A stretch of DNA of 64,000 bases from Arenicellales bacterium (GCA_028284225.1 JANQSD010000013.1:136422-200421), one strand, 5' to 3'. Counted from the first letter of the stretch, positions 5,039 to 20,711 are shown. Numbers and translations are program-made. The notes: generated from the letters alone by a model not told the origin.

Positions 5039-5647
5039 TCAATCAAAATGATCGGGAAAATTCAGTTTCAAATATGACTTGATGATTTTTCGATTTGTTT
5101 GATAACTGTATTGTTTCGGGTTAAGGTGTGCAGTCCACCAGAATCCCAGCAACATGGCGCTCAGTGCGGCACTAACATGCTTAACATTGACCGCTTGATA
5201 GTTTCCATTGTTAATAATCGATTCTATTAATCTGTAAGTATCCTGATCGTACTTTCTATCTCGATTAGCGTTAAACTGTTTATATAAACCTTTTGCCTCG
5301 CCCCAAAATGTATACCAAACTGAAATCAAATCCGGTTTTTCGATGGGTAATTTAAGATCATAGTCAACCAAGCGCATAAGTTTTTTTTCTGCACTAAGCG
5401 TTTTACTTGACTCTAAAATTTCATTCCATTGTTGATTGTATTCTGCGCCAATCTCACTAAGAACAATTTTCAGCATCTCGTTTTTTGATTTAAAATGGAA
5501 CACCACCAGCGTTCTAGATACACCAGCGATTTGTGCAATACGATCTAAAGTTGTATCGCATAGTCCGCGTGTCGCAATACATTTTATCGCAGCATCAAGA
5601 ATCACTTTACGCCTGGCTACACCTTTCTCTAGTCGTTTATCACTCAC
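5039..5647 (-). CDS. TetR/AcrR-family transcriptional regulator (BetI-like)
   Basis: N-terminal HTH 'ILDAAIKCIATRGLCDTTLDRIAQIAGVSRTLVVFHFKSKNEML'. It is divergent from the amine-dehydrogenase operon. Confidence 0.85.
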   Translation of the reverse strand: MSDKRLEKGVARRKVILDAAIKCIATRGLCDTTLDRIAQIAGVSRTLVVFHFKSKNEMLKIVLSEIGAEYNQQWNEILESSKTLSAEKKLMRLVDYDLKLPIEKPDLISVWYTFWGEAKGLYKQFNANRDRKYDQDTYRLIESIINNGNYQAVNVKHVSAALSAMLLGFWWTAHLNPKQYSYQTNRKIIKSYLKLNFPDHFD

Positions 5648-5669
5648 TACTGATTAACAAAATATTAAA

Positions 5670-5699
5670 TTGACTGACTTGTTAGTCAGTAATTATAAT
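5670..5699 (+). promoter_or_regulatory. Putative sigma70 promoter of the amine operon with an embedded palindromic operator
   Basis: TTGACT (5670-5675), an 18-nt spacer, then TATAAT (5694-5699). The perfect inverted repeat ACTGACT-TGTT-AGTCAGT (5673-5690) occupies the -35/spacer region. This is a typical TetR operator geometry, 46 nt upstream of the ATG at 5736. Confidence 0.55.
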
Positions 5700-5735
5700 A
5701 AGCAAATTCACCACGTGTAAAGAGCAACTTTATCT

Positions 5736-7808
5736 ATGACTGCGGTCAACACCAACTACGATATTTTATTTGAACCCATCGATATTGGTCCGGTGACGGC
5801 AAAAAATCGTTTTTATCAAGTTCCGCACTGTACCGGATTAGGTTGGATCAGACCACGAATGCTGACTGATTTACGGGTTGCTAAGGCAGAAGGCGGTTGG
5901 GGGGTGGTTTGCACTGAATATTGCTCAATCCACCCAAATTCTGATGATATGCCGTACCCATATCAGTCCTTATGGGATCAAAGAGATATAAAGTTCCATG
6001 CTTTAATGACAGAAAAAATACATGAGCATGGCGCCCTTGCGGGTGTAGAACTTTGGGCAGGGGGTCCGCGAGCGTCAAATTTCTTTTCCCGTGAAGTGCC
6101 CATCAGTGTCAGTAATCAACCCAATCTTGTCGGTCATCCACAACAAACTCGCAGAATGGACAAAAAGGACATCAGAGCGTTACGTCAATGGCACAAAGAC
6201 GCTGCAATACGCGCTAAACATGCTGATTTTGATATTGTCTATGTTTATGCTACCCATGATTATTTGCTCTCGCAATTTCTGTCATCCGCAACCAATACAC
6301 GTACAGATGAATATGGCGGCAATCTGGAAAATCAGGTTAGATTAGTAAAAGAGCTGATCGAAGAAACCAAGGATGCGGTCGGAGACCGCTGTGCGGTAGC
6401 AGTACGTTATGCTGTAGACGAACCCTGTGGACAAGATGGAATACCCTTATATGATGAAAAAAGGGAAATGTTTAATTTAATAGCCGAATTGCCGGATTTA
6501 TGGGATATAAACATTACTGATTATTCCTTTGAGATGGGGGCCTCCCGGTTTGTGAAAGAGGCGTCGCTTGAACCCTATATGGATTTTGTCAAATCAGCGA
6601 CGACCAAACCTGTGGTTTCAGTTGGCCGCTTTACCTCAGCTGATACAATGGCAGCTCAAATCAGGCGCGGCCTTGTTGACTTTATTGGTGCAGCGAGACC
6701 CTCCATCGCTGACCCCTTTCTCCCTAATAAGATTAAGCAAGGTCGCTATGACGAAATCCGTGAATGTATAGGTTGTAATATTTGTTATGCAGCTGATGCC
6801 TTGGCTGTACCCATTCGTTGTACACAAAATCCAACAATGGGTGAGGAGTGGCGGCGTGGCTGGCACCCAGAGAAAGTGCCTGCAAAAAGTTCTGATTCTG
6901 AAATACTCATTATCGGATCTGGGCCCTGTGGATTAGAAGCATGTAGAGTGTTAGGTCAACGGGGTTATAGAGTCATATTGGCTGAGGCCGATGACAACCT
7001 GGGGGGTAGGGTAAAAAAGGAAAGCCATTTGCCGGGATTAAGCGAATGGATACGCGTTGTTGATTACAGAGTGCAGCAAATCAACAAAATGGCTAATGTT
7101 CAGGTTTATCGCCATAGTCAATTAACGGCAGCAGATGTGATTGAATTAAATGTCGATCATGTGGCCATCGCGACTGGCGCCCGCTGGCGCAATGATGGAT
7201 TTGGTCGTCATCATCTTAAATCCCTTTCTAGACTAACGACTGATATACAGATATTTACCCCTGATGATATTATGGAGGGTAACTTACCGATGGGTAAAAC
7301 GGTTGTCTATGATGACGATGGATATTACATGGGCAGTGTGATAGCGGAAAAAATTATAGCTGCAGGCAATAAAGCGCTTAGCTTTGTTACTACTGACGAT
7401 AAGGTTTCAAGCTGGAGTGTTAATACAAGCGAGCAGCATCGTGTCCAAAGACGGTTAATTGAGATGGGCATATCGATTACTACAGCTCATTCGTTAATGT
7501 CTTTTGATGGCAATGTGGTCAGCTTCTGTTGTAACTACTCAGATCAAAAAAAATCAATTGATGCAGATTCTATTGTGCTGGTCACGGCACGTACACCTAA
7601 CGATACTTTATATTATGAGCTGGACGAATATTTAAATTCCGAACCGGAAGAAAAACTGTTTACTGTCAGCAAAATCGGTGACTGCGATGCACCGTCAATA
7701 ATTGCTGATGCTGTATTTGCAGGGCACAAATGGGCTCGTGAGTTAGACCAACCTGTCGATTCAAGCAATCCGTTTAAATACGATAGGGTAGAATTCCATG
7801 GGGTTTAG
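5736..7808 (+). CDS. Trimethylamine/dimethylamine/histamine-dehydrogenase-family amine dehydrogenase (FMN OYE-like domain, 4Fe-4S, ADP-binding domain)
   Basis: 690 aa. 'YDILFEPIDIGPVTAKNRFYQVPHC' matches the TMADH N-terminus, including the Cys that forms 6-S-cysteinyl-FMN. The 4Fe-4S ligands CIGCNIC...C and a second Rossmann motif 'ILIIGSGPCGLEA' are present. Confidence 0.85.
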   Translation: MTAVNTNYDILFEPIDIGPVTAKNRFYQVPHCTGLGWIRPRMLTDLRVAKAEGGWGVVCTEYCSIHPNSDDMPYPYQSLWDQRDIKFHALMTEKIHEHGALAGVELWAGGPRASNFFSREVPISVSNQPNLVGHPQQTRRMDKKDIRALRQWHKDAAIRAKHADFDIVYVYATHDYLLSQFLSSATNTRTDEYGGNLENQVRLVKELIEETKDAVGDRCAVAVRYAVDEPCGQDGIPLYDEKREMFNLIAELPDLWDINITDYSFEMGASRFVKEASLEPYMDFVKSATTKPVVSVGRFTSADTMAAQIRRGLVDFIGAARPSIADPFLPNKIKQGRYDEIRECIGCNICYAADALAVPIRCTQNPTMGEEWRRGWHPEKVPAKSSDSEILIIGSGPCGLEACRVLGQRGYRVILAEADDNLGGRVKKESHLPGLSEWIRVVDYRVQQINKMANVQVYRHSQLTAADVIELNVDHVAIATGARWRNDGFGRHHLKSLSRLTTDIQIFTPDDIMEGNLPMGKTVVYDDDGYYMGSVIAEKIIAAGNKALSFVTTDDKVSSWSVNTSEQHRVQRRLIEMGISITTAHSLMSFDGNVVSFCCNYSDQKKSIDADSIVLVTARTPNDTLYYELDEYLNSEPEEKLFTVSKIGDCDAPSIIADAVFAGHKWARELDQPVDSSNPFKYDRVEFHGV

Positions 7809-7844
7809 TATGACTGATAATGGCAAAATCATAGGCAGGTCAGC

Positions 7845-9434
7845 ATGAATAATTACGACGCTATTGTTATCGGTGCCGGTCATAATGGTTTGGTGAATGC
7901 GTGCTATTTGGCTCGTGCCGACTTAAAAACGCTGGTATTGGAACGTAATCCATATATTGGTGGCGCATCAGTTACGCGTGAATTATATCCGGGATTTAGC
8001 TATACAAATTGTTCTTATGTATGCAGCCTGTTTAGACCGGAAATATTCCGTCAGCTTGAACTTTCCAGGCACGGCTTACAAGTCATTCCTTATGATGGCG
8101 GTTGTACATTTACACAAGACGGAAATTACCTGGCCACTTATAATGATCATGAGGCGCAGCGCCGCGAGTTTGCCAGGTTTAGTGCGAGGGATGCCGAAGC
8201 CTATGATGATTATGCAACTGATGTAATGCGGCATTGTAGGTTCATCAAACCCTGGCTATTACGAACACCACCTGATCCTGTATCAAGAAAAGCTAAAGAC
8301 ATCAAAGGGCTTTGGCAACTTTACAAAGATTTACAAGTACTTACTGAGGCGCAAATCTACGATACGCTGGAGTTTTATACTATTAGCTGTGGTGATTATT
8401 TAAATCGCTACTTTGAATCGGACGTCATTAAGGGGCATATTTCCAATAGTTCAATCATCGGTACCGGGCTTGGTCCATATTCACCTGGATCAGCTTATGT
8501 TCTATTGCATCATTATATGGGTGAAGTCGATGGCCGCATAGGGTCGTGGGGGGTGGCACGTGGTGGTATGGGCGCGATAGCCAATGCACTGGCCAGTTCA
8601 TTCAAAGCCAGCCAGGGTGAAATTAAAACCGATTGTAGCGTGGAAAATCTAATCGTTAAGGAAGGTAAGGCTGTGGGTGTCGCCCTGGAAAATGGTGATG
8701 AATATTATGCAGATACTATTGTTTCAAATCTGGATGTTAAGCGTACCTTTCTTAAAGTCGTAGATAAGCAACACTTGCCGCAAGATTTTGTTACTCAGGT
8801 ACAGCAGTTTAAGATTCGTGGCTCTTCTGGAAAATTAAATATAGCACTGGATGGAATGCCGACATTTCCTGCTCTACCTGAAGGTTCAACCGCTATTCGC
8901 GGACATGTCAACATTATTGATAGTATGGAACGGCTGGAGCGGGGTTATGATGACTGGAAAAACGGAACCTGGTCTAAAGACCCTTTTGTTGATTTGCTCA
9001 TCCCCACCCAGACTGACCCGACAATGGTGCCTCCCGGCAAGCAAATGATGTCCGTTTTTGTGCAATATGCGCCGCCTGTTCTAAACACCGGTGAGTGGAC
9101 TGAAGAAGATAAACAGGCCTTTGGGCAAACTGTTATTGATGCGATTGCACAATATAGTCCCGACTTCAAAGATCTGATTTTGCATGCTGAAATCAGAACT
9201 CCTCAAGACATAGAAAACGAAGCAGGTTTGACTCAGGGCAACATATTTCACGGAGAGCTGACACTGGATCAGCTCCTGTTTAACCGTCCCATACCCGGCT
9301 ATGCACAGTATCGTTCTCCCATACCCGGATTTTATATGTGCGGTTCCAGCACCCACCCGGGAGGCGGGGTGATGGGCGCTCCAGGTGCTAATGCAGCGAG
9401 GGAAATATTGGCCGACAAGAGGATGACTGTATGA
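7845..9434 (+). CDS. FAD-dependent oxidoreductase, PYROXD2/phytoene-desaturase (CrtI)-like family, copy A
   Basis: 529 aa. Motifs seen: 'YDAIVIGAGHNGLV', 'GSAYVLLHHYMGEVDGRIGSWGVARGGMGA' and C-terminal 'GNIFHGELTLDQLLFNRP...YMCGSSTHPGGGVMGAPGANAA'. Its stop overlaps the next start (ATGA, 9431-9434). Confidence 0.8.
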   Translation: MNNYDAIVIGAGHNGLVNACYLARADLKTLVLERNPYIGGASVTRELYPGFSYTNCSYVCSLFRPEIFRQLELSRHGLQVIPYDGGCTFTQDGNYLATYNDHEAQRREFARFSARDAEAYDDYATDVMRHCRFIKPWLLRTPPDPVSRKAKDIKGLWQLYKDLQVLTEAQIYDTLEFYTISCGDYLNRYFESDVIKGHISNSSIIGTGLGPYSPGSAYVLLHHYMGEVDGRIGSWGVARGGMGAIANALASSFKASQGEIKTDCSVENLIVKEGKAVGVALENGDEYYADTIVSNLDVKRTFLKVVDKQHLPQDFVTQVQQFKIRGSSGKLNIALDGMPTFPALPEGSTAIRGHVNIIDSMERLERGYDDWKNGTWSKDPFVDLLIPTQTDPTMVPPGKQMMSVFVQYAPPVLNTGEWTEEDKQAFGQTVIDAIAQYSPDFKDLILHAEIRTPQDIENEAGLTQGNIFHGELTLDQLLFNRPIPGYAQYRSPIPGFYMCGSSTHPGGGVMGAPGANAAREILADKRMTV

Positions 9435-10999
9435 GCAATCAATACGACATCATTATCATCGGAGCAGGACTCAATGGATTAGTATGCGCCAATATTCTGG
9501 CTAAAAAAGGCCGCAAGGTGCTAGTGCTGGAAGCCAACAAACAAGTCGGAGGTCTGGCCAATACACGGGAATTTGCAAGCGGTTTTAAAGTTTCGGCGGG
9601 TGCTCATCTGCTCTATGGCTTGCACCCTGATATATACCGACTCTGTGACGTACAGGAATCAAAAATTGAATTTGCCGATAAAAATATTTCCACATTAGTC
9701 ATTAACCAAAACAAGGAATTTATTAATTATTCAAGCGGAGAGGATTCACAAATTATTTACAGTAGCTCATTGTCTGAACAACAAAATTCAGATTGGAGCA
9801 ACTTTCAAAACCGGATGAAAACCTTCAGCGATATTTTATTCGATCTCGCTAACAAAACGCCGCCCCGATTAAAGAATGGTTCAATACAGGATTATAAAAC
9901 CCTGTTCAACACCGGTTTAAAGCTTAAACGTCTTGATAAACAAAATTTGCGCCAATTCCTGAGAATAATTGGCATGAATATATATGATCTGGCAGATGAA
10001 AGTTTCACAGATAACTTACAAAAGGCTGCCATTTGTTTTGAATCAGCCCTTGGTACACGATTGGGGCCGAGAGCGCCGAATACCGTCTACAATTGGCTTA
10101 ATCGTTATTCAATCATTAACCGACAACCTGCGGGTTTAAGTGTGCCTAGAGGAGGTATAGGGAGCTTGTCTCAGGCATTTGCCAACGCCGCCTTGATCAA
10201 GGGTGTGGATATCAGTGTTTCCAGCCGAGTAGAAAAAATTCTGATTGCTGACAATCAAGTCAAAGGTGTGCAATTATCTGGCGGTGAAAAATTTGCTGCC
10301 CGGCAGGTTATTTCTAATGCAGACATTAAAAAAACCATGTTATCCATGGTTGGCCCCGAAAATATTGATACGGATGTAGTCAGGCGCGTTTCGTATATTC
10401 CTATGCAAGGCACCACAGCCAAAATGCATTTAGCGTTAAATCAGCTGCTTGAGCCCATAACTCATAACGTAAGCGATTTTCAATCAAGAATTATTTACGC
10501 GCCTGATGCAGATTTTATTGAGCGAGCCTCAAACTCGATCAAATACAACCAATACACTCATGAACCAACTTTTGAGATTACATTTCCATCGGTACAGGAT
10601 TCAAGTTTAGCGCCGGCAGGTAAACATGTAATGTCGGTTCTGATTCCGTATGTACCTTATGAACATAAAGAGGGTTGGGCCCAGCGCAAAGAGCGATTTG
10701 AAAACCATATTATCGAACAGCTTGAATATATTTTTCCGGGCATACATGCGGCAATAGAGCATGTTGAAACGCTAACACCTGCTGATATTGAACGGCAGTT
10801 TAATATTACCGGCGGGCACTGGCATCACGGTGAGATTGGCCTGGAGCGTTTTATGATGCTAAGGCCAACTGCTGGATTTGCCCAATACAAGACACCCATA
10901 GATGGATTATTTCTATGTGGGGCCGATTGCCACCCGGGTGGTGATTTAAGCGGTGCCCCGGGTATGAACGCAGCGAACACGGTGTTACAAAGCAAATGA
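9431..10999 (+). CDS. FAD-dependent oxidoreductase, PYROXD2/CrtI-like family, divergent copy B
   Basis: 522 aa. Motifs seen: 'YDIIIIGAGLNGLV' and C-terminal 'GGHWHHGEIGLERFMMLRP...LFLCGADCHPGGDLSGAPGMNAA'. It has 4-nt overlaps with both neighbours. Confidence 0.75.
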   Translation: MSNQYDIIIIGAGLNGLVCANILAKKGRKVLVLEANKQVGGLANTREFASGFKVSAGAHLLYGLHPDIYRLCDVQESKIEFADKNISTLVINQNKEFINYSSGEDSQIIYSSSLSEQQNSDWSNFQNRMKTFSDILFDLANKTPPRLKNGSIQDYKTLFNTGLKLKRLDKQNLRQFLRIIGMNIYDLADESFTDNLQKAAICFESALGTRLGPRAPNTVYNWLNRYSIINRQPAGLSVPRGGIGSLSQAFANAALIKGVDISVSSRVEKILIADNQVKGVQLSGGEKFAARQVISNADIKKTMLSMVGPENIDTDVVRRVSYIPMQGTTAKMHLALNQLLEPITHNVSDFQSRIIYAPDADFIERASNSIKYNQYTHEPTFEITFPSVQDSSLAPAGKHVMSVLIPYVPYEHKEGWAQRKERFENHIIEQLEYIFPGIHAAIEHVETLTPADIERQFNITGGHWHHGEIGLERFMMLRPTAGFAQYKTPIDGLFLCGADCHPGGDLSGAPGMNAANTVLQSK

Positions 11000-12192
11000 T
11001 TAATTTTTCACGCTCACTCGAACCGAACAATACCATGGTGATTCCAACACCATTTCATGAACGTAGTTTTGCTGCGAACAGGCGAGGGCATTGGACCAGC
11101 TGGGCCGGCTACACTATCGCCGATGAATATACACATGCAGATCTGGAATATTTTGCAGTACGCAATCAATGTGGTGTTTTTGATCTAACACCAATGATCA
11201 AGTACCACATTTCCGGGGTTGATGCCGAGGCTTATTTGAATAAATTATTTACCCGCGACATTAGAAAAATAAAAGCCTCGCAAGTTGCCTATGTACTATT
11301 TTGTAATGAATCCGGTTACACCCTGGATGACGGGACCTTATTTAAATTTTCAAACTCCGAGTATATTTTTTGCTCTCAGGACCGGCACCTGCCATGGCTG
11401 CTGGACAGCGCAATCGGTTTCGATGTCGAAATCAAAGACAGGACTGATAAAATCGCGGCATTAGCCGTGCAGGGTCCAACATCAGCTGCAATCTTGAAAC
11501 GAATGGGCTTAGACGGCATTGAAAATCTGCCTCCATTCCAGATGCAGTCATTCCAATATCAGCGTGATGACTTGATTGTTTCTCGAACTGGTTTTACCGG
11601 TGACTTAGGTTATGAATTATGGATTGATCCGTATCTTGCAATTAAGCTTTGGGATGATCTGTTTACCTGCGGACAAAACTACGGCATTGAACCCTTTGGC
11701 TCCAAAGCACTGGAAATGTTGCGTATTGAAGCCGGATTTATTTTGCCGCATAAAGATTTCCTGCCGGCAAATCATGTCATTCGCGTTAATCGAGGGCGTA
11801 CACCATTTGAATTGGGTTATGGCCGGCTGGTTGATTTCGACAAGGGATTTTTTAATGGCCGCCAGGCATTACTCAAAGCACAGCAAAATGGGCCACGTTA
11901 CCAACTGGTGGGATTAGAAATAGACGGTAACAAACCCGCTTACGACGCTTGGATTTATCAAAACAAGCGCAAAAATGTCGGTACGATTACTTCTGCCATG
12001 TGGTCACCTTCTTGTAAGACTAACATAGCCTTGGCCTGGTTAGATGCTAACGCTAAAACCGACAACCTTTGGGTTGATATTTACACCAATAAAGAACTTA
12101 AATGGCACAAGAACATGGTGTCATGCAAAGTTGTAAAGCGTCCTTTTTTTAACCCCGCCAGAAGAAATGCTGTACCAGCATTAGATTTTTAA
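10996..12192 (+). CDS. Aminomethyltransferase-family (GcvT-like, folate-binding) protein
   Basis: 398 aa. 'YFAVRNQCGVFDLTPMIKYHISGVDAEAYLNKLFTRD', 'ALAVQGP' and 'RTGFTGDLGYELW' are typical T-protein/DmdA-family motifs. Its start overlaps the stop of copy B (ATGA, 10996-10999). Confidence 0.8.
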   Translation: MINFSRSLEPNNTMVIPTPFHERSFAANRRGHWTSWAGYTIADEYTHADLEYFAVRNQCGVFDLTPMIKYHISGVDAEAYLNKLFTRDIRKIKASQVAYVLFCNESGYTLDDGTLFKFSNSEYIFCSQDRHLPWLLDSAIGFDVEIKDRTDKIAALAVQGPTSAAILKRMGLDGIENLPPFQMQSFQYQRDDLIVSRTGFTGDLGYELWIDPYLAIKLWDDLFTCGQNYGIEPFGSKALEMLRIEAGFILPHKDFLPANHVIRVNRGRTPFELGYGRLVDFDKGFFNGRQALLKAQQNGPRYQLVGLEIDGNKPAYDAWIYQNKRKNVGTITSAMWSPSCKTNIALAWLDANAKTDNLWVDIYTNKELKWHKNMVSCKVVKRPFFNPARRNAVPALDF

Positions 12193-12203
12193 GGGAAAAA
12201 CCC

Positions 12204-13652
12204 ATGATGAAAACTGAACAATTACAGCATCTCGATAATCAATTCGTGCACCCCTGGGAAGACGTTAAATCAATCGGTAAAAACAAACGCACCGTTATAA
12301 CCGGTGGAACAGGTATCTATGTAACCGATTCAGATGGCAATCGCTTAATCGATGGGCCTGCTGGTATGTGGTGTGTCAATATTGGGCACGGCCGTGAAGA
12401 AATGGCGCAAACTATCGCATCTCAATGTATGCAGCTTTCTTATGTTAGCCCCTGGAGTTTGGCTAATTCTCCAGCTGCCAAATTAGCAAATAAACTGGTT
12501 TCTATCGCGCCGGAGGGGATGAATCATGTGTTCTTTACTACCGGCGGCTCAACAGCAGTTGATTCAGCATTGCGATTTTTGATTTTCCGTAATAATTTTC
12601 TTGGCCAAACGGAGAAAAAACATTTTATCTCACGTGCCAATGCCTATCATGGCAGTACTTTTTTATCCTCTTCTGCTTGCGGCAAAACCCGGGATAAGAA
12701 CTTTAACGATTTTGATAAAGAACATTTTCACTTTCTAAGTGACCCTAATCCTTATCGTCGCAAACAAGGTCAATCTATTGAAGAATTTCGTCAATTGTTG
12801 GTCGACGAACTTGAGCAGAAAATTCTGGAGTTAGGCGCCAATAAAGTAGCTGCTTTTATTGCGGAACCGATTCTTGCCTCCGGTGGTGTAATCATTCCTC
12901 CAGACGGCTATCACAAAGCCTGTCATGAGATTTGTAGAAAGTATGATGTCGCCTATATATCTGATGAGGTTGTTACAGGATTTGGTCGCTTGGGCCATTT
13001 TTTCTCGAGTAAAGTGGTATTTGACATCGATGCGGATATTATTACTTGTGCAAAAGGTTTGACATCGGGCTATGTACCATTAGGCGCATTCCTGGTTTCA
13101 GACAGACTTTTGGACGATTTTAAAGATACCGATGAAAGCACCGGTGTTTTTTCAAACGGTTATACGTATTCAGGCCATCCTGTTTCATGTGCAGCAGCGT
13201 TAAAGAACATTGAAATTATTCAAGACGAAAAAATTTTAGAACATGTTCGTGAGGTTTCACCATATTTCCAGCAACGTTTGCATGGATTTATAGATTATCC
13301 AATCGTAGTCGATACACGTGGCATGGGGCTAATGGGTTGTATAGAATGTGAAATTAACCCTGAACAAAATGACCAGCAGCAAAGCACCGATCAGAAAGGT
13401 TATGCAGTGCCAAGGTCAAGCCCTCCACAAATATCAAAGGCAGATAAATTAGCCATTGATTACGATCTTGGCAATAGAATCGACAAACACTGTCAAGCGC
13501 TGGGTTTAATCGTCAGACCTATTATCAATATGTGTGTATTTTCACCACCATTGGTTATTACTAAAAAGCAAATCGATGAAATGTTTAATTTACTGGAAAA
13601 GGGCCTGCAACTGACCATGAAAGATTTATCAAGTGAAGGGCTGCTGGATTGA
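12204..13652 (+). CDS. Class-III (omega) aminotransferase, SpuC/putrescine-pyruvate-aminotransferase-like
   Basis: 482 aa. Motifs seen: 'GPAGMWCVNIGHGREEM', 'FFTTGGSTAVDSA', 'AEPILASGGVIIPP', 'ISDEVVTGFGRLG' and 'CAKGLTSGYVPLG' (PLP-lysine region). Confidence 0.85.
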   Translation: MMKTEQLQHLDNQFVHPWEDVKSIGKNKRTVITGGTGIYVTDSDGNRLIDGPAGMWCVNIGHGREEMAQTIASQCMQLSYVSPWSLANSPAAKLANKLVSIAPEGMNHVFFTTGGSTAVDSALRFLIFRNNFLGQTEKKHFISRANAYHGSTFLSSSACGKTRDKNFNDFDKEHFHFLSDPNPYRRKQGQSIEEFRQLLVDELEQKILELGANKVAAFIAEPILASGGVIIPPDGYHKACHEICRKYDVAYISDEVVTGFGRLGHFFSSKVVFDIDADIITCAKGLTSGYVPLGAFLVSDRLLDDFKDTDESTGVFSNGYTYSGHPVSCAAALKNIEIIQDEKILEHVREVSPYFQQRLHGFIDYPIVVDTRGMGLMGCIECEINPEQNDQQQSTDQKGYAVPRSSPPQISKADKLAIDYDLGNRIDKHCQALGLIVRPIINMCVFSPPLVITKKQIDEMFNLLEKGLQLTMKDLSSEGLLD

Positions 13653-13655
13653 AGT

Positions 13656-14873
13656 ATGAGTTCGCTCGCACCTGCATTGAGTTTTGACATTAAAAGCCTG
13701 GTTCACAGGCAAAAACCTGGGTATTCGCTCGAACAAATTTTCTATGTTGATCCGGAAATTTATAATCATGATTTGGAAAAAATTTTTTTCGCCGATTGGT
13801 TATACATCTGCCATAGCTCCCAAATTCCAGATCCGGGGGATAGCTATACCTACGATATTGATAAGGAATCGATTATTGTTAGTCGAAATCAATCTGGAAA
13901 TATAAATGCATTCGCTAACGTTTGCCGCCATCGTGGTTCCAGAATTTGTGAGTCCGGTAAAAGCACTCAAAAACGTTTTGTCTGCCCTTATCATGCCTGG
14001 ACTTATGACTTAGATGGTGAACTTTTGTCTGCCAGACAGATGGGAGAAGACTTTGATAAATCACAATTCAAGTTGAACAAATTACCTATTGAAGTGTTTT
14101 GCGGTTTTATATTTGTCAGTTTGTCCTCAAATCCGATACCCTTTGCAGAATTAAAGCAGAATCTTAAAGCGCCATTGTCTGTTTTCGATCTGGACAACAC
14201 TAAAGTTGTTGCGCATGAAGTTCATCCCATACATGCAAATTGGAAGCTGGTATTCGAAAATTTTGATGAATGCTATCACTGCGGCCCTGCACATAAGGAG
14301 TTTTCGGCCTCACACTCTCTCATGTTGAGTGATGAGCGGCGTACAGAATTTGATCAACAGATCACCCTGCGAGCACAGGAAATCGGCATATGTGCTGATG
14401 AAATTAAACTTGACCAGCCTGAAGCATTAATGAAACAACAAGCGCCGTATCATTATGATCGCTACGCGTTATTTGACGGATATTTAACCGGCAGTGAAGA
14501 TGGAAAGCCTGTTGCACAATTATTGGGCAATATTCAAGACTATGATAGCGGCGCCAGTAATGTTCAGCTTGGCAATTTAACATTCTTACTCGTCTATTGT
14601 GATCATGTGGTGCTGTATCGATTTACACCGCGTGCAGTAGATTTGACTGATGCGGAAATAATTTGGCTAGTTCGCAGTGACGCAAGTGAACATGATGTTG
14701 ATCTTGAGCGCATGAAATGGTTATGGAATGTCACCACAATTGCTGACAAGGACATCATTGAACGTAACCAAAAAGGTGTATTATCACGTTTCTATCAACC
14801 CGGGCCTTATGCACCTATGGAAATCTATACGATTAATTTTATACAATGGTATTTACAAGCAATCGTAACTTAA
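13656..14873 (+). CDS. Rieske [2Fe-2S] non-haem-iron oxygenase, alpha-subunit type (GbcA/CntA/Stc2-like)
   Basis: 405 aa. Rieske motif 'CRHRGSRIC...CPYHAWTY'. Mononuclear-iron region 'NWKLVFENFDECYHCGPAH'. Confidence 0.85.
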   Translation: MSSLAPALSFDIKSLVHRQKPGYSLEQIFYVDPEIYNHDLEKIFFADWLYICHSSQIPDPGDSYTYDIDKESIIVSRNQSGNINAFANVCRHRGSRICESGKSTQKRFVCPYHAWTYDLDGELLSARQMGEDFDKSQFKLNKLPIEVFCGFIFVSLSSNPIPFAELKQNLKAPLSVFDLDNTKVVAHEVHPIHANWKLVFENFDECYHCGPAHKEFSASHSLMLSDERRTEFDQQITLRAQEIGICADEIKLDQPEALMKQQAPYHYDRYALFDGYLTGSEDGKPVAQLLGNIQDYDSGASNVQLGNLTFLLVYCDHVVLYRFTPRAVDLTDAEIIWLVRSDASEHDVDLERMKWLWNVTTIADKDIIERNQKGVLSRFYQPGPYAPMEIYTINFIQWYLQAIVT

Positions 14874-14885
14874 CAGGGACCTACT

Positions 14886-15236
14886 ATGATCAAAACAGCA
14901 GCCGATTTAATCGCCGATGCACAAACCAAGATTAACTGCGTTAATGTAAAGCAGGCAAAAGAACTGTACCAGGCTTCTGATAATGCAGTCATTCTGGATG
15001 TGCGAGAAGCTGACACGGCGGAAAAATCAAAGCTAAAAGATTCAGTCAATATTTCACGGGGTCTGATCGAAATGAAGGTGCCCAACTTGTGCTCTGATCC
15101 TGACACACTGATTTTGACACACTGTGGTGGGGGAGGCAGGGCTTCATTGGCAGCAGCCACCTTAAAGGAAATGGGCTATAACAATGTTCATGCGGTTACT
15201 GCTACCTATGAAGATATTAAAAAAGAATTTGGCTGA
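14886..15236 (+). CDS. Single-domain rhodanese (sulfurtransferase-like) protein
   Basis: 116 aa. Active-site loop 'LTHCGGGGRAS'. It is the last gene of the plus-strand operon. Confidence 0.8.
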   Translation: MIKTAADLIADAQTKINCVNVKQAKELYQASDNAVILDVREADTAEKSKLKDSVNISRGLIEMKVPNLCSDPDTLILTHCGGGGRASLAAATLKEMGYNNVHAVTATYEDIKKEFG

Positions 15237-15319
15237 CCAGTTTATCTACAACTATAAACGCGTTTAACTTGGAATGATTAGCCAGAACCTGTTTTAAAAC
15301 AGCCCTGAGAAATGTAGAT

Positions 15320-16186
15320 TTAAGCCGTAGTTTCTGTATCGAAGTCGAGCTTGTCTGCAGCTGCCATTTGCTGATCACGCTGCCGTTGCTTTTCCTGGCG
15401 CCACATAATGTAGCCAGCCAGTATTACACCAATAGCCACCGTAACAATAATAATAGTCGCCAGTGCATTAATATCAGGCCTCAATCCCAGGCGAATTCGG
15501 GAGTAAATCAAAATGGGTAACGTATTCGACCCCGGACCTGTAACAAAGCTGGCAATTACCAAGTCATCCAGCGAAAGCGTAAATGCCAACAACCATCCCG
15601 CTAACATGCCCGGTGCAAGTATCGGCAGGGTAATATCAGTTAATACTCTTAACGGTTTCGCCCCTAAATCCTGGGCAGCTTCTTCCAATGATTCATCCAT
15701 ACCGGTTAAACGAGACTGAATAATCACAGCGACATAGGCCATTGAAAAGGTGATATGTGCAATGGTAATCGTGGTAAATCCACGTTCAGATGGCCAACCA
15801 ATGAATTGAGACAAAGTAATAAATAGCAATAGTAGTGACAGGCCAGTGATAACTTCCGGCATAACCAATGGAGCCGAAATCATCCCGGAAAACAGGGTTC
15901 TGCCCCTAAAACGACCAAAACGCACTAATGCCAAACCAGCAAGAGTACCCATTAATGTTGCAAAGGTTGCATTGACGACTGCGATTTTCAGGCTTAACAA
16001 CAGGGCTTGCCAGACTTCTGGGCTTTCAAACAACACCTTGTACCATCTAAAAGAAAAACCTCCCCAGATAGGCACAATTTTAGAATGGTTAAATGAATAA
16101 ACAATCAACAACACCATGGGGATATATAAAAACGCCAGCCCAAAGCAAAGCATTGAAAACATGAAGGTAGAGCGTTGCTTTTTCAT
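15320..16186 (-). CDS. potI: Polyamine (putrescine-type) ABC transporter permease
   Basis: 288 aa, multi-TM. Contains the EAA-type loop 'EEAAQDLGAKPLRVLTDITLPIL'. Its start overlaps the upstream permease stop by 1 nt. Confidence 0.8.
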   Translation of the reverse strand: MKKQRSTFMFSMLCFGLAFLYIPMVLLIVYSFNHSKIVPIWGGFSFRWYKVLFESPEVWQALLLSLKIAVVNATFATLMGTLAGLALVRFGRFRGRTLFSGMISAPLVMPEVITGLSLLLLFITLSQFIGWPSERGFTTITIAHITFSMAYVAVIIQSRLTGMDESLEEAAQDLGAKPLRVLTDITLPILAPGMLAGWLLAFTLSLDDLVIASFVTGPGSNTLPILIYSRIRLGLRPDINALATIIIVTVAIGVILAGYIMWRQEKQRQRDQQMAAADKLDFDTETTA

Positions 16187-17121
16187 TAAGATTCACTCTC
16201 CTTTGACTGAATATGTTGATACAACATCATTGGCGCTACCAGCACTATTAACAAAGCAATGGCTACTGCAGAGGCAACCGGCCAGTCATGGTTATTATTA
16301 AATTCATTGTAAAGCACTTTGCCTATCATCAAGGAGTTGCCGCCGCCAAGTAGATCTGGGATAACGTATTCACCTGTGGCAGGAATAAACACCAAGAGTG
16401 ACCCGGCAATTATTCCCGGCATGGTCATCGGCAATGTAACAGTCAAAAAAGTAGTGATCGGTTTTGCTCCAAGATCAGCCGCAGCTTCGTGCAAGGTTAT
16501 ATCCAGCTTTTCCATGTTGGCATAGAGCGGCAAGATCATAAAAGGCAAATAGGAGTAAACAATGCCTAAATAAACCGCAAACTGGGTATAAAGCATGCGT
16601 ATGGGTTGATCGATAATACCCAACCAGATAAGTAAATTATTAATCGTGCCCTGATCGGCTAATAGCCCCATCCAGGCATATACACGCAGTAAAAAAGAAG
16701 TCCAGAAGGGAAGAATAATCAACATGAGTAGAATATTCTTTTTGGTAGGACTAGAACGGACAATTGCATAAGCCATCGGATAACCGATAATTAAGCAAAT
16801 CAATGTTGATATAAATGCAACTTTAACTGAGTTTATATACGTCGTAATGTATAGTTCGTCTTCCCATAAATAAGCGAAGTTATCAAACAGCACTCTGATT
16901 TGTAATGCACCGTCTTCCGCCCATTGAAATAGAGATGAAAATGGAGGGCTGGCAATCAGAGATTCAGCAAAGCTTATTTTTAATACAATAAAAAATGGAA
17001 CCAGAAAGAAAATGAACAGCCAAATATATGGAATACCTACAACCAGAGTTTTCCAGCTGGACTGAAGTTTATAACTCAGGTTTTTTACCAATGAATTCGA
17101 GATTTGACTAGCTTCAGACAT
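16186..17121 (-). CDS. potH: Polyamine (putrescine-type) ABC transporter permease
   Basis: 311 aa, multi-TM. Contains 'HEAAADLGAKPITTFLTVTLPM'. It follows the ATPase gene with a 1-nt gap. Confidence 0.8.
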   Translation of the reverse strand: MSEASQISNSLVKNLSYKLQSSWKTLVVGIPYIWLFIFFLVPFFIVLKISFAESLIASPPFSSLFQWAEDGALQIRVLFDNFAYLWEDELYITTYINSVKVAFISTLICLIIGYPMAYAIVRSSPTKKNILLMLIILPFWTSFLLRVYAWMGLLADQGTINNLLIWLGIIDQPIRMLYTQFAVYLGIVYSYLPFMILPLYANMEKLDITLHEAAADLGAKPITTFLTVTLPMTMPGIIAGSLLVFIPATGEYVIPDLLGGGNSLMIGKVLYNEFNNNHDWPVASAVAIALLIVLVAPMMLYQHIQSKESES

Positions 17122-17122
17122 G

Positions 17123-18268
17123 TTAATGTGTCAATACAACTGCACTGGAAGCATCCCAGCTTAGATATACTTTTTCCTCCCAATCTACTAAATGATCACC
17201 GCTTTTAGGGCGCACTTGATTCGGGTAAGTAATATCAATGATCTTTCCATTGTCCAGTAAGACTTTATAGTTAGATAATTTGCCCAAATAACCGATATCA
17301 TCTACAGTTCCTATAAGCTGATTATGGTCACTTTGCTCCGGCGGTGATTTCGATATTTTGATTTTCTCAGGCCGAATAGCAACCCAGACTTTGGCATTTT
17401 CTTGTAAGTCTGAACCGTGATCGATATAAAACAAACTCTGATCTCGTGTAGAACGCACTAAAACATGCTCTTTACCACTTTCGACAACATGGCCCTCAAA
17501 AATATTAGCTGAACCAATAAAATTGGCAATAAACCGACTATCAGGGGTTTCATAAATTTCAGTTGGTGTGCCCGTTTGAATAAATTTACCTTTATCCATA
17601 ATTGCAATTCGTGTGGATAAAGTCATTGCTTCTTCTTGATCATGGGTCACAACTATAAATGTAACGCCAAGTTGATCCTGAATATTCATCAACTCATACT
17701 GGGTTTGCTCCCGTAGGCGTTTATCAAGCGCACCCAACGGCTCATCCAGCAATAAAACCTTTGGTTGTTTGACCAACGCTCGAGCTAACGCAACACGTTG
17801 GCGTTGACCACCCGACAGTTGATGTGGTTTGCGCTTACTAAACTGTGTCAATTCAACCATATCTATGATTTCTTCAACTTTAGACTGTATGGTAGCTTTA
17901 TCGAGACCGTCTCTGACCAGCCCATAAGCAATATTCTTTTCAACCGTCATGTGCGGAAATAACGCATAGGACTGAAACATCATATTTACAGGGCGTTCAT
18001 AAGCCGGAATGTCGTTCATTTCCACACCATCAATGAAAATTTTTCCAGCTGTAGGCGTCTCAAAACCGGCAAGCATCCGTAACAGGGTGCTTTTACCGCA
18101 ACCCGATCCACCTAGCCAGCAAAACAATTCACCCTTATAAATATCGAGATCAACATTATCAACAGCAGTAAAGTCACCAAAACGCTTGGTAATACCTTGA
18201 ATCTTTATATAGGGTTCAGCCTCCGGGTCCAACCAAGGACGGTGGGCAAGTTTTGGATCCTTCGACAT
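17123..18268 (-). CDS. potG: Polyamine ABC transporter ATP-binding protein
   Basis: 381 aa. Walker A 'GGSGCGKST', signature 'LSGGQRQRVALARAL', Walker B 'LLLDEP', and a PotA/PotG-type C-terminal regulatory domain. Confidence 0.9.
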   Translation of the reverse strand: MSKDPKLAHRPWLDPEAEPYIKIQGITKRFGDFTAVDNVDLDIYKGELFCWLGGSGCGKSTLLRMLAGFETPTAGKIFIDGVEMNDIPAYERPVNMMFQSYALFPHMTVEKNIAYGLVRDGLDKATIQSKVEEIIDMVELTQFSKRKPHQLSGGQRQRVALARALVKQPKVLLLDEPLGALDKRLREQTQYELMNIQDQLGVTFIVVTHDQEEAMTLSTRIAIMDKGKFIQTGTPTEIYETPDSRFIANFIGSANIFEGHVVESGKEHVLVRSTRDQSLFYIDHGSDLQENAKVWVAIRPEKIKISKSPPEQSDHNQLIGTVDDIGYLGKLSNYKVLLDNGKIIDITYPNQVRPKSGDHLVDWEEKVYLSWDASSAVVLTH

Positions 18269-18295
18269 CTACGAACTTCCTCTATGCTAAAAGTA

Positions 18296-18321
18296 AAAGT
18301 GCCATTTAGAAATGGCACTTT
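18296..18321 (-). terminator. Intercistronic hairpin between the binding-protein and ATPase genes (partial terminator or RNA-stabilising element)
   Basis: Palindrome AAAGTGCCATTT-AG-AAATGGCACTTT read from the sequence. On the minus strand it is followed by TTACTTTT. Confidence 0.5.
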
Positions 18322-18331
18322 ATTAGAACTA

Positions 18332-19432
18332 TTATCCGCCTGTTTTAAAGTTTGTCCAGGCTCTGGTTCTTGCCCGTTCAGCTTTTTTAGGCACTGGAAT
18401 GAGTGGATACATTTGGGTAACCTGTTCTTCAGAAGGATAGGCGGCTTTACTGCTGGTCACTTCTGTATCAACCAGATCGAATGCATCTTTGTTAGCATTG
18501 GCATACCAGGTGTAATTACTGTCACCAGCCGCAACTTCGGGGCGCATCATGTAATTAAGGAACAAGTGGGCATTTTCAACATTTTTAGCGTCGGCCGGAA
18601 TCGCCCAACCATCAGCCCAGAATTGTGCTTTGCCATCGCCTTCCGGTAAAAAGAAATCAAGCACAACACCGGTCTCGGCCTCAGCTGCACCTGCCATAGC
18701 CAATAGGCCATCAGGACCCCAAGTGATCGCAACACAAAATTCCCTTTCCGGCATACGTTGATAAGCATAGTTATCAAAAGTTTTGATATAAGGGCGAACT
18801 TTAGAAAGCATTTCTTCAGCTGCTTTATAGTCTTTTGGATTGGTAGAACTGGGGTCTAGACCCAGGTGCGCCAAAGCCATTGGCATAATATCTGTCGGCG
18901 AATCAAGGAACGAAACACCGCACTCGGCAATTTTCTCCATGTGCTCGGGATTAAACACTAAATCCATTGAACCTATAGGTGCATCAGGATGAACGCTTTT
19001 AACTAATTCTTCATTATAGGTCACGCCATGGGTTCCCCACATGTAAGGGATAATATGTTCATTGCCAGGGTCCCAGTTAGAATTCAATTGCTCCATAATA
19101 TCTGCGCGCATATGCTTCATATTCGGAAGCTTGTTTTTGTCCAGCTTTTGATAGATCCCGGCAGGAATCAAACGTGCATTCATTGAGCTTGCATGACTGA
19201 CCACATCATAGCCGGAATTACCGGCCAGTAATTTTGAGTCTATGGCTTCAACAGAATCGTATACATCATAAATTACCTTGATATTGAATTCCTTTTCAAA
19301 ATTTGCAATCGTCTCTTCGCCAATATATTCGGCCCAGTTAGTAACCCGTAGTTCACCCTCAGCAAATGTAGTTGTTGTAAACCCCAATATTGCAGGAATA
19401 ATCACTATGCCTGCGAATTTTTTAAAATTCAT
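18332..19432 (-). CDS. potF: Periplasmic putrescine/diamine-binding protein (PotF/SpuD-like)
   Basis: 366 aa with a signal peptide. 'RVTNWAEYIGEETIANFEKEFNIKVIYDVYDSVEAIDSKLLAGNSGYDVV' parallels the E. coli PotF N-terminal region as I recall it. Confidence 0.85.
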   Translation of the reverse strand: MNFKKFAGIVIIPAILGFTTTTFAEGELRVTNWAEYIGEETIANFEKEFNIKVIYDVYDSVEAIDSKLLAGNSGYDVVSHASSMNARLIPAGIYQKLDKNKLPNMKHMRADIMEQLNSNWDPGNEHIIPYMWGTHGVTYNEELVKSVHPDAPIGSMDLVFNPEHMEKIAECGVSFLDSPTDIMPMALAHLGLDPSSTNPKDYKAAEEMLSKVRPYIKTFDNYAYQRMPEREFCVAITWGPDGLLAMAGAAEAETGVVLDFFLPEGDGKAQFWADGWAIPADAKNVENAHLFLNYMMRPEVAAGDSNYTWYANANKDAFDLVDTEVTSSKAAYPSEEQVTQMYPLIPVPKKAERARTRAWTNFKTGG

Positions 19433-19526
19433 AGTTTGCTCCGTGTAGTAAGAATAGGATGGTTAAAAAGACTAAAATAATTTAGTTTGACAATCAAGTT
19501 ATAAATACTTAATTCATTACAGATAG

Positions 19527-20711
19527 TTAATGATGGCTAAGCATTAAATGGTTGATTTTAGTAACTTTTCCAGGCGCCGGTTCATTTGCCAAGGTAGCCA
19601 CCGGAATTCTTTGTTGTATCTGTTGATGCAAATGCTTTACACCCTGTTCAAGGGTTGATAGTTGCAGTTTTGGGAAAGCACTGGACTTGATGCCTTTTTG
19701 AATCCAACGGACAAAACTTTCATCCTCCTGTTCTGTTGACTGGTTAATTCGCTGGGTTAAATAGCGCGATAATTTGACTTCACGACGTACATCTGGCAAT
19801 GCGTATGCTGCCCCAATATATTCACTGCAGTCAGGTGAAATGGGAATAGACATGTAATATTCAACCATATCTGGATAAAACCCAATCACCATCGAAGGAA
19901 ATATTCCCGTGTAAAGCCAGAGGCGCTGATAGTCATCAGGCAAATGATCAAAACGTGGCAAAATTTTTTGGTAATGTCTGACACTCCATAGTTTTCCTGG
20001 CTTTTCGTTTATATACCCATAAGACACGGGGATACCATTTTCTATCTCATCGCTATATTGATTACCATAAAGTTGCTGCAACGACGGGTGACCAATTGGA
20101 ACATGATAACCCTCATTATCAATGTCATGAATAATCTTCCAGTTATAAGGGCGTTTCTGCCGATATTTTGTACCCGCAAGCGGCTGGATGTTTTCTAGTT
20201 GATAAGGTACTAATTTCTCTACTAAAGTCCGCATTTGACTTGCCAGACTTTCGCTATTTTCACTGAAATTTATAAATATGAATCCAAACCAGATTTCTAA
20301 CGACAGTTTAACTAAGCCACACTTTTCCTGTTGCAATCCTGGAAAAGTTTCGGCTCTTGGAATATAGCGCACTTGCCCATCTAAATGATAAGACCAACCG
20401 TGAAATGGGCAGACCAGCGCCCTGGGACAGTTTCCATAAGCACCTTCGACAACTTTTGCGCCGCGATGACGACATACATTATGGAAAGCATGAATCGTAA
20501 GGTTTTCATCCCTGATGATTAACGCCCGCTCACCCAGCGCATCAAAAGTCAAATAGTCACCACTGTTAGGAATATCGCTAATATGACCAACTAACAGCCA
20601 GTTCCTTTTGTAAATATATTCCTTTTCAAGTTCAAAGAATTCTTGGTTCCAATATGTCCAGGGCGCTAAGATATCAGTAGTTTCAGGCACAAACGAAGTA
20701 GAATCAGACAT
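19527..20711 (-). CDS. Rieske [2Fe-2S] non-haem-iron oxygenase, alpha-subunit type (second copy)
   Basis: 394 aa. Motifs 'CRHRGAKVVEG...CPFHGWSY' and 'NWKIIHDIDNEGYHVPIGH'. It heads the minus-strand pot operon. Confidence 0.85.
   Translation of the reverse strand: MSDSTSFVPETTDILAPWTYWNQEFFELEKEYIYKRNWLLVGHISDIPNSGDYLTFDALGERALIIRDENLTIHAFHNVCRHRGAKVVEGAYGNCPRALVCPFHGWSYHLDGQVRYIPRAETFPGLQQEKCGLVKLSLEIWFGFIFINFSENSESLASQMRTLVEKLVPYQLENIQPLAGTKYRQKRPYNWKIIHDIDNEGYHVPIGHPSLQQLYGNQYSDEIENGIPVSYGYINEKPGKLWSVRHYQKILPRFDHLPDDYQRLWLYTGIFPSMVIGFYPDMVEYYMSIPISPDCSEYIGAAYALPDVRREVKLSRYLTQRINQSTEQEDESFVRWIQKGIKSSAFPKLQLSTLEQGVKHLHQQIQQRIPVATLANEPAPGKVTKINHLMLSHH

Follow-up and report, generated by a model that had tools for sequence, protein, structure and literature searches.

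What amine does a bacterium break down when it carries, within 16 kb, two flavoproteins resembling human PYROXD2, a folate-binding protein, two Rieske oxygenases, an amine dehydrogenase, a transaminase and a polyamine-type importer? The question is raised by positions 5039-20711 of a stretch of DNA from an Arenicellales bacterium (GCA_028284225.1 JANQSD010000013.1:136422-200421), analyzed over its whole length of 64 kb (the window) by open reading frame (ORF) calling and by Pfam and NCBIfam domain scans. Our answer, which we hold at a little better than even odds (roughly 55%), is that the cluster serves the catabolism of a di- or polyamine-type compound that is cationic and N-methylated. Its core appears to be a trio of adjoining genes, which encode two PYROXD2-like flavoproteins (subunits A and B) and a protein related to the glycine-cleavage T-protein GcvT, and which we read as a putative folate-linked N-demethylase. 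All enzymatic steps proposed below are deduced from homology and gene context. The cluster and its immediate right-hand neighbor comprise the following features.

5039..5647, minus strand: TetR-family repressor with a BetI-type C-terminal domain (Pfam TetR_N and TetR_C_6), divergent from the operon
5670..5699, plus strand: promoter-like site TTGACT-18 nt-TATAAT around a palindrome, the putative TetR operator at 5673-5690
5736..7808, plus strand: amine dehydrogenase of the trimethylamine dehydrogenase (TMADH)/histamine dehydrogenase (HADH) family, with flavin mononucleotide (FMN), 4Fe-4S and ADP-binding domain (Oxidored_FMN and Pyr_redox_2)
7845..9434, plus strand: PYROXD2-like flavin adenine dinucleotide (FAD) flavoprotein, subunit A of the putative demethylase (Pfam Amino_oxidase, NAD_binding_8)
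9431..10999, plus strand: CrtI/PYROXD2-like FAD flavoprotein, subunit B, a paralogue of A (Amino_oxidase/CrtI-like)
10996..12192, plus strand: GcvT-like tetrahydrofolate-binding protein of the aminomethyltransferase family (Pfam GCV_T, GCV_T_C)
12204..13652, plus strand: class-III omega-transaminase of the pyruvate-dependent amine/polyamine type (Aminotran_3, NF005447)
13656..14873, plus strand: Rieske non-haem-iron monooxygenase 1, Stc2/GbcA-like (Rieske and Ring_hydroxyl_A)
14886..15236, plus strand: single-domain rhodanese (Pfam Rhodanese)
15320..16186, minus strand: ATP-binding cassette (ABC) permease, PotI-like (BPD_transp_1)
16186..17121, minus strand: ABC permease, PotH-like (BPD_transp_1)
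17123..18268, minus strand: ABC ATPase, PotG-like (ABC_tran and TOBE_2)
18332..19432, minus strand: periplasmic PotF/SpuD/SpuE-like binding protein with an altered pocket (homology and pocket alignment)
19527..20711, minus strand: Rieske non-haem-iron monooxygenase 2, distantly CntA-like, first gene of the transporter arm (Rieske and Ring_hydroxyl_A)
21173..22837, minus strand: electron transfer flavoprotein (ETF)-ubiquinone oxidoreductase, of doubtful cluster membership (ETFQO_UQ-bd and Fer4_ETF_QO)

The gene content and operon structure described in an earlier, sequence-only reading of the window were reproduced throughout, in ORF coordinates, spacings and Pfam/NCBIfam domain calls alike. 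In the ORF map the spacings between the seven genes of the plus-strand operon are 36, -4, -4, 11, 3 and 12 nt. Both -4 spacings are ATGA start/stop overlaps, joining A to B and B to the GcvT-like gene, and an AAGAGG Shine-Dalgarno sequence lies ahead of the second gene.

Subunit A aligns with human PYROXD2 over its full length at 38% identity (E 1e-128), which bears out the PYROXD2-like label that the trio had been given, and subunit B aligns at 26%; both percentages are approximate, the human query being a provisional sequence. A chance match of A at this strength would be impossible. A and B are paralogues of each other (28% identity), each with an N-terminal GxGxxG. Identity of subunit A across bacterial classes is 65-69%, and a word-indexed search returned at least 8000 relatives, all at E <= 1e-20, for which the databases hold only generic names such as 'phytoene dehydrogenase-like'. 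An AlphaFold2 model of A (pLDDT 83) has the CrtD/CrtI/amine-oxidase fold. Its best Foldseek match is a CrtD-type desaturase (TM 0.78), followed by CrtI and, in later matches, by the flavin amine oxidases and dehydrogenases NicA2, putrescine oxidase, monoamine oxidase and Pnao; Foldseek found no solved homologue closer than CrtD/CrtI. Since these two are the best solved matches, the fold does not discriminate between functions. The cut-offs of the carotenoid desaturase models are not reached (TIGR02734 at 114 and 133 bits with a cut-off of 238, CrtO at 302 with a cut-off of 1000), and no carotenoid genes were found near the cluster. P0130, of 904 aa, and P0135, of 890 aa, are apparent A-B fusions in which the B part is seemingly truncated. 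If real, they could back a physical A-B complex; frameshifts or gene-calling artefacts are also possible, and we do not rely on them.

The third member of the trio carries the T-protein domains (Pfam GCV_T 196 bits, GCV_T_C 48 bits) and a DDGT motif, presumably the Asp-containing folate motif, which is invariant in 16 homologues. It scores below the T-protein equivalogs, with 160.7 bits to TIGR00528 (cut-off 235.85) and 227.6 to PRK00389 (cut-off 300), and its gene neighbors are flavoproteins, with no gcvH/gcvP context. The closest solved relative is the tetrahydrofolate (THF) domain of the trimethylamine N-oxide (TMAO) demethylase Tdm (9Q5A), followed by T-proteins and by the THF domains of dimethylglycine dehydrogenase and SoxA. 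In Tdm, formaldehyde channelled to this domain is fixed as methylene-THF (PMC13619132). Variants of human PYROXD2 have been associated with trimethylamine, dimethylamine, N-methylpipecolate, asymmetric dimethylarginine and N2-acetyl-N6,N6-dimethyllysine (PMC4564198, PMC13352909). With P < 1e-307 for a urinary signal assigned to trimethylamine (PMC4564198), the locus is among the strongest associations on record for any urinary metabolite; the literature searched reports no enzymatic activity for the human protein. Taken together, the relatives of the GcvT-like protein, the PYROXD2 genetics and the flavoprotein fold support, though they do not prove, a reading of the trio as a folate-linked oxidative N-demethylase built on the CrtI/PYROXD2 fold. 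Neither the trio nor the whole cluster is described in the literature searched, in keeping with the initial impression that this gene combination is no recognized pathway; a paper on an Ianthella basta symbiont is silent on the cluster. We tentatively go further, at rather less than even odds, and propose that the trio is an unrecognized, very widespread heteromeric N-demethylase of alkylamines that passes the methyl carbon to THF, the bacterial counterpart of human PYROXD2, and that the genes in the window would suffice to degrade a di- or polyamine bearing several methyl groups.

How far the trio and its companions travel together was determined by scanning genomes with aligned sequences of the GcvT-like protein, which yielded 80 loci; one further locus, L001 from an ENA genome, was found separately. 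Companion genes were counted within 10 kb of the trio in the 48 loci whose flanks extend for 6 kb or more in both directions. Both CrtI-like flavoproteins stand beside the GcvT-like gene in all 48. A PotF-type ABC system accompanies them in 35 loci from several classes, a Rieske oxygenase of any kind in 32 (type 2 in 22, type 1 in 13) and a class-III transaminase in 31. Less frequent are an ADP-forming acyl-CoA synthetase (13/48), a PuuC-like aldehyde dehydrogenase (11/48), a short-chain acyl-CoA dehydrogenase (11/48) and a glutamine synthetase (GS)-like enzyme (8/48). The TMADH-family enzyme occurs in only four loci, with a single case outside close relatives. A typical layout elsewhere has permease, ATPase, binding protein, acyl-CoA dehydrogenase and TetR genes on one strand, and diverging from them a series of aminotransferase, CrtI, CrtI, GcvT and acyl-CoA synthetase genes that ends in an aldehyde dehydrogenase, GS or Rieske gene. 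Hosts of trio clusters include Steroidobacteraceae, Woeseiaceae, Halieaceae, Porticoccaceae/SAR92, Kiloniellaceae, Mesorhizobium and Hoeflea, among others. Kiloniella laminariae DSM 19542, Hoeflea olei JC234, Mesorhizobium amorphae and Lentisalinibacter orientalis are carriers that have been cultured.

The closest relatives of the window locus, by identity of the GcvT-like protein, are L004 (84%), from an Arenicellales metagenome-assembled genome (MAG), L001 (70%) and L005 (65%), from a Candidatus Poriferihabitaceae MAG, which would make the host of the window probably an Arenicellales gammaproteobacterium. L001 and L004 retain the entire cluster in the same gene order with convergent arms; L005 has the TetR gene and the operon as far as Rieske 1, without the rhodanese and without an adjacent potFGHI/Rieske 2 arm. 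The rhodanese is kept only in L001 and L004 (77-89% identity), and the permeases are 84-91% identical in these two loci and 33-69% identical where detected in other trio loci. With this synteny and the recurrence of the trio in all 48 loci, the arrangement is not due to chance. Conservation of the cluster as a whole, a comparison to which the sequence-only reading had pointed, is seen in L001 and L004. The cluster is not a one-off, and its accessory genes vary elsewhere. Because the trio is constant while accessory genes change, we read the window as a lineage-specific, Arenicellales-type variant of a widespread cluster, to which a rhodanese and a TMADH-family dehydrogenase have apparently been added. 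The presence of the core in soil Steroidobacteraceae and in Mesorhizobium makes it less likely that the substrate of the core module is specific to diatoms, diatom polyamines having been named at first as a speculative example. Two further families in high-GC loci, 'u556' and 'u548', were discarded as antisense ORF-calling artefacts. Separately, several alphaproteobacterial trio loci (L047, L059, L063, L064 and L072) carry a SAM (S-adenosylmethionine)-dependent methyltransferase gene beside a PotD-like binding protein, an unexpected companion in a presumed demethylation cluster.

The importer bears on the nature of the substrate. Its binding protein scores 322 bits to SpuD and 294 to PotF, with a range of 294-322 across PotF, SpuD and SpuE, and falls below the cut-off of the PotF equivalog (322.6 bits, cut-off 636). 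In PotF 1A99 numbering the pocket keeps W37, Y40, W244 and Y314, and the four acidic positions are all acidic (D39E, E185D, with D247 and D278 kept), so that the likeness to PotF seen at the outset extends to the diamine-type pocket. Departures are S38A and S85A, which remove two hydroxyls of the putrescine site of PotF, P84H and F276W. Most of the 21 trio-linked binding proteins share a signature of WA[DE]Y, E185D and F276W, usually with P84H. With its four carboxylates, the pocket speaks for a dication as the probable ligand rather than a zwitterionic betaine, and the lost hydroxyls and the extra aromatic residue would be compatible with a methylated nitrogen; as judged from these residues, the pocket favours a dicationic, methylated amine.

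Both Rieske proteins have the CxH...CxxH motif, the mononuclear-iron H-x4-H and a Glu at the bridging position, a residue that we take to be typical of the quaternary-amine Rieske clade (GbcA/Stc2/CntA). The first combines CRH...CPYH with the iron motif NWK..ENFDECYHCGPAH, the second CRH...CPFH with NWK..DIDNEGYHVPIGH. Rieske 1 scores about 235 bits to the stachydrine demethylase Stc2 (4QUP/3VCA) and to 3N0Q, Rieske 2 scores 122 bits to the carnitine monooxygenase CntA (6Y8J), and both remain under the 670 cut-off of the GbcA model, at 300 and 140 bits, respectively. In other trio loci (L017, L021, L026, L050 and others) a GS-like gene, resembling gamma-glutamylputrescine synthetase/GmaS, lies 3' of the GcvT-like gene and directly 5' of the Rieske 1-type gene, a pairing that recalls, as we understand them, gamma-glutamylation-dependent amine oxygenation systems.

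The first gene of the operon encodes a dehydrogenase with 686 bits to histamine dehydrogenase 3K30 (residues 3-682) vs 528 bits to TMADH; PDB 6L6J, an entry whose identity could not be established, scores 657 bits. Cys32 aligns with HADH Cys35, the 6-S-cysteinyl-FMN cysteine, and the 4Fe-4S motif CIGCNIC...C is kept. At HADH Q65, E79, W267 and D358, presumably the histamine-pocket residues of 3K30, the enzyme has Tyr, Tyr, Tyr and Asp, only D358 being retained. This pocket is largely kept in the cluster orthologues, with Ser at position 79 in L001. Mapped via the HADH alignment, the equivalents of Y60, W264 and W355, which we take to form the aromatic bowl of TMADH, are Tyr, Tyr and Asp. Histamine dehydrogenase acts on primary amines, which it deaminates rather than demethylates. 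With a nearest characterized relative of this kind, demethylation by the TMADH-family enzyme is not established. The transaminase reaches 646.8 bits to NF005447 (PRK07036 type), over the 618 cut-off, and its nearest solved relatives are 3I5T and then the putrescine/polyamine:pyruvate transaminases 6GWI, 6HX9 and 9J4Z. The 'four N-dealkylation chemistries' with which the locus had been credited are therefore an overcount, as the transaminase deaminates and the TMADH-family enzyme is nearest to histamine dehydrogenase. The active-site loop of the rhodanese, HCGGGGR, is intact; a role in sulfur delivery to the three Fe-S enzymes would be a guess. ETF-ubiquinone oxidoreductase is a possible electron sink for the dehydrogenase via ETF, but its membership of the cluster is doubtful, and it was found within 10 kb of the cluster in none of the other loci, L001 and L004 included.

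The 88-nt spacer between tetR and the operon contains a perfect palindrome, ACTGACT-tgtt-AGTCAGT (5673-5690), placed between the -35 and -10 elements and overlapping the divergent tetR promoter; a promoter scan of the spacer gave 11/12 on both strands. No second exact copy of the palindrome occurs in the window. Together with the flanking TTGAC/TATAAT it is kept in L004, L001 and L005, where the rest of the spacer has diverged and the TetR orthologues are 46-61% identical to that of the window. An operator motif conserved inside the promoter in four genomes, in a spacer that is otherwise diverged, supports control of the plus-strand operon by TetR, with the palindrome as the putative operator. 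The regulator scores 74.5 bits to the BetI equivalogs, under their cut-offs of 118 and 201, and shares with BetI only the C-terminal domain (TetR_C_6). BetI-type TetR genes were found by tblastn in about 50 of all fetched loci, and two lineages of them occur near the trio. The common one (about 50 loci) is 35-41% identical among loci, and the window TetR is only 26% identical to it; the divergent lineage occurs only with the TMADH-containing version of the cluster (window, L001, L004 and L005). L001 has both, the second TetR, of the common lineage, standing on the transporter arm (L001 positions 19982-20644, minus strand), where it is missing from the window and L004. No remnant of it was found in the 460-bp gap at 20712-21172. 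Several repeats able to form hairpins lie in this non-coding gap upstream of Rieske 2, and GTTCAGGATGACC occurs in it twice, at 20970 and 21136, with zero occurrences expected by chance.

Read as a pathway for a methylated di- or polyamine, the cluster would operate as follows. The substrate would enter through the PotFGHI-type ABC system, whose binding protein appears tuned to a dication with a bulkier, methylated nitrogen. The Rieske monooxygenases, members of the quaternary-amine clade (Stc2/GbcA-like and CntA-like), would hydroxylate the carbon beside the fully substituted nitrogen, so that a methyl group is lost as formaldehyde or the C-N bond is cleaved, with a reductase whose gene presumably lies in another part of the genome. 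A, B and the GcvT-like protein, as a translationally coupled complex, would then oxidize the remaining N-methyl groups to the iminium and pass the one-carbon unit to THF as 5,10-methylene-THF, a step that parallels those of sarcosine oxidase, dimethylglycine dehydrogenase and the THF domain of TMAO demethylase. Primary amines exposed in this way would be removed by the pyruvate-type omega-transaminase and the histamine-dehydrogenase-like FMN/4Fe-4S enzyme, the electrons of the latter probably going to ETF. The BetI-type TetR would repress the plus-strand operon at the palindrome between the -35 and -10 elements. Part of this had been anticipated: the dication pocket, the trio and the relatives of the Rieske proteins lend support to the N-methylated di-/polyamine pathway, while demethylation by the dehydrogenase is not established and TetR control of the whole island is not supported.

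Several observations weigh against this pathway. The CrtI-like fold of A, as modelled, also supports C-C desaturation, and the comparison with human PYROXD2 was made with a provisional query. The dehydrogenase could serve in either demethylation or deamination. No Rieske reductase or ferredoxin was found by Pfam among all ORFs of at least 150 aa in the 64 kb; tblastn of the window with the Fer2/FNR reductase of a related locus gave nothing at E <= 10, and whole-window motif scans recovered only the two Rieske oxygenases themselves. The absence of a partner from the window, noticed at the start, is borne out on all three counts. The window likewise holds no aldehyde dehydrogenase for the product of the transaminase or dehydrogenase. 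At other loci the accessory genes (ADP-forming acyl-CoA synthetase, aldehyde dehydrogenase, short-chain acyl-CoA dehydrogenase, enoyl-CoA hydratase, a 3-hydroxyacyl-CoA dehydrogenase-thioesterase fusion and a GS-like enzyme) point to a carbon skeleton probably handled as acyl-CoA, and the window is without those genes. Upstream of Rieske 2/potF, finally, there is no palindrome within 3 mismatches and no half-site within 2. Without an operator copy there, co-regulation of the two arms is unproven; of the 'TetR-controlled 15-kb island' proposed earlier, the plus-strand operon with its conserved operator stands and the minus-strand arm does not. One specific skeleton was considered and rejected: a lysine- or cadaverine-derived C5 chain ending in glutaryl-CoA is not supported, because the accessory acyl-CoA dehydrogenase is a generic short-chain enzyme (CarC/SCAD best) and not a glutaryl-CoA dehydrogenase.

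The same genes can be arranged around a zwitterionic betaine such as gamma-butyrobetaine, beta-alanine betaine, delta-valerobetaine or proline betaine. Demethylation would then be stepwise, with a Rieske enzyme taking the trimethyl to the dimethyl form, the TMADH-family enzyme the dimethyl to the monomethyl form and the PYROXD2-like/GcvT proteins the monomethyl form to the primary amine, followed by transamination, in parallel with the GbcAB/DgcAB/Sox route for glycine betaine and the Stc2/StcD route for stachydrine. The proximity of Rieske 1 to Stc2 and of Rieske 2 to carnitine monooxygenase speaks for such a substrate, as do the BetI-type ligand domain of the regulator and the wealth of BCCT, OpuAC, MttB and dimethylglycine dehydrogenase-like genes in the rest of the window. 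So does the occurrence of the trio elsewhere beside acyl-CoA synthetase, acyl-CoA dehydrogenase, enoyl-CoA hydratase and 3-hydroxyacyl-CoA dehydrogenase-thioesterase fusion genes, a set that to our understanding resembles the one for gamma-butyrobetaine/carnitine degradation. We nevertheless consider a betaine unlikely: the importer is of the PotF type and not of the ProX/OpuAC type, its pocket and those of most trio-linked binding proteins keep the four acidic residues, which in PotF bind two ammonium groups, and gain no basic residue for a carboxylate, the TMADH-family enzyme is nearest to histamine dehydrogenase and not to a known methylamine demethylase, and the accessory acyl-CoA dehydrogenase is not specifically a crotonobetainyl-CoA or glutaryl-CoA enzyme.

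If the importer's family and the primary-amine enzymes were instead decisive, the cluster would catabolize unmethylated biogenic amines (putrescine, spermidine, agmatine or histamine), with the PYROXD2-like/GcvT and Rieske genes merely co-located. The scores of the binding protein to PotF, SpuD and SpuE, the kinship of the transaminase to SpuC and putrescine transaminases and the 686 bits of the dehydrogenase to histamine dehydrogenase all agree with this, but we regard it as very improbable. The invariant element is the trio, which the ABC system accompanies across classes, whereas the dehydrogenase is present in just 4 of 48 loci; the trio sits inside the operon (spacings 36, -4, -4 and 11 nt); the pocket departs from PotF/SpuD/SpuE family-wide at S38, S85, P84, E185 and F276; HADH Q65, E79 and W267 are all replaced; and the window has no aminoaldehyde dehydrogenase. 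Nor do we find it probable that the locus is a mosaic of independently regulated modules for different substrates, the TetR-governed plus-strand operon being one and Rieske 2 with potFGHI another. The operator is indeed missing upstream of the minus-strand arm, the transporter arm of L001 carries a separate TetR from another lineage, the accessory genes differ greatly from locus to locus and L005 keeps the plus-strand operon without the second arm next to it. Set against this are the PotF-type ABC system within 10 kb of the trio in 35/48 loci and the Rieske 2-type gene in 22, a specific pocket signature common to trio-linked binding proteins, and a convergent layout kept in the window, L001 and L004 despite 70-84% GcvT identity.

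The cluster differs from each of the systems that it resembles. SoxBDAG, dimethylglycine dehydrogenase/oxidase and Tdm also combine an N-methyl-oxidizing or demethylating unit with a GcvT-type THF module that captures the one-carbon unit in the form of methylene-THF; the trio uses a pair of CrtI/PYROXD2-like paralogues instead of the DAO fold, has its THF module on a separate polypeptide, and its activity is predicted. The pathways for glycine betaine (GbcAB-DgcAB-Sox) and stachydrine (Stc2-StcD) share a Rieske enzyme for a quaternary nitrogen, later flavoprotein demethylases and a BetI/TetR-type or related regulator, whereas the window has a PotF-type importer with a dication pocket, a transaminase in the operon, no adjacent reductase gene, and a Rieske 1 that scores 300 against the GbcA cut-off of 670. 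Histamine dehydrogenase (3K30, 6DE6) and TMADH correspond to the window enzyme over the full length, in the FMN cysteine, the 4Fe-4S motif and the ADP-binding domain; its Tyr/Tyr/Tyr/Asp pocket matches neither. Human PYROXD2, tied by genetics to N-methylated amines, resembles subunit A over its full length (38%, provisional query), but the bacterial protein adjoins two partners, a paralogue and a GcvT-like protein, of a kind not known for human PYROXD2. PotFGHI/SpuDEFGH with SpuC, from Pseudomonas and Escherichia coli, share the transporter architecture, a related binding-protein family and a transaminase; the window differs by the pocket signature S38A/E185D/P84H/F276W and by three extra C-N-oxidizing systems, and is without an aminoaldehyde dehydrogenase or gamma-glutamylation enzyme. 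Relative to these systems, then, what differs is the catalytic flavoproteins and the overall combination, while in principle the scheme resembles sarcosine oxidase, dimethylglycine dehydrogenase, Tdm and GbcA/Stc2.

The rest of the window holds further genes of amine metabolism. On the minus strand, 43428-52663 forms a second methylated-amine island with an MttB-family methyltransferase (47046-48566, without an in-frame stop), a DAO flavoprotein, an amidohydrolase, a class-IV aminotransferase, an OpuAC-containing fusion protein and a BCCT transporter; a Pfam scan of the window ORFs revealed no corrinoid protein near it. Directly 3' of gltX, at 38285-40699 on the plus strand, lies a dimethylglycine-dehydrogenase-like DAO/FAO_M/GCV_T fusion, so that the genome has a classical DAO-type folate-linked demethylase besides the PYROXD2-like one. 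The right-hand edge of the amine island is marked, at 21173-34664, by the ETF-ubiquinone oxidoreductase followed by an apparent acetate-switch neighborhood: a VC_2705-family Na+/solute symporter with a small partner, a hybrid PAS_7 histidine kinase, a LuxR-type regulator, an acetyl-CoA synthetase and a DUF294 nucleotidyltransferase with an exonuclease. To the left, between a 597-aa acyl-CoA dehydrogenase and TetR, a plus-strand gene (3874-4911) encodes a 345-aa signal-peptide protein with no Pfam or NCBIfam match, which is syntenic and 64-89% conserved in L001 and L004.

In both marine and soil environments, methylated amines are major currencies of nitrogen and one-carbon units, and the known demethylases leave the abundant trio unaccounted for. 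If the proposal is correct, the trio would reveal the reaction type of the orphan enzyme PYROXD2, and the version in the window would add to it a pair of Rieske oxygenases together with a new dehydrogenase of the TMADH family in a host that is probably a sponge-associated Arenicellales bacterium. The reaction class of PYROXD2 would then become directly testable as N-methyl amine oxidation, possibly coupled to folate; the bacterial context suggests N-methylated diamines as candidate substrates, and human genetics suggests N6-methyl-lysines and N-methylpipecolate.

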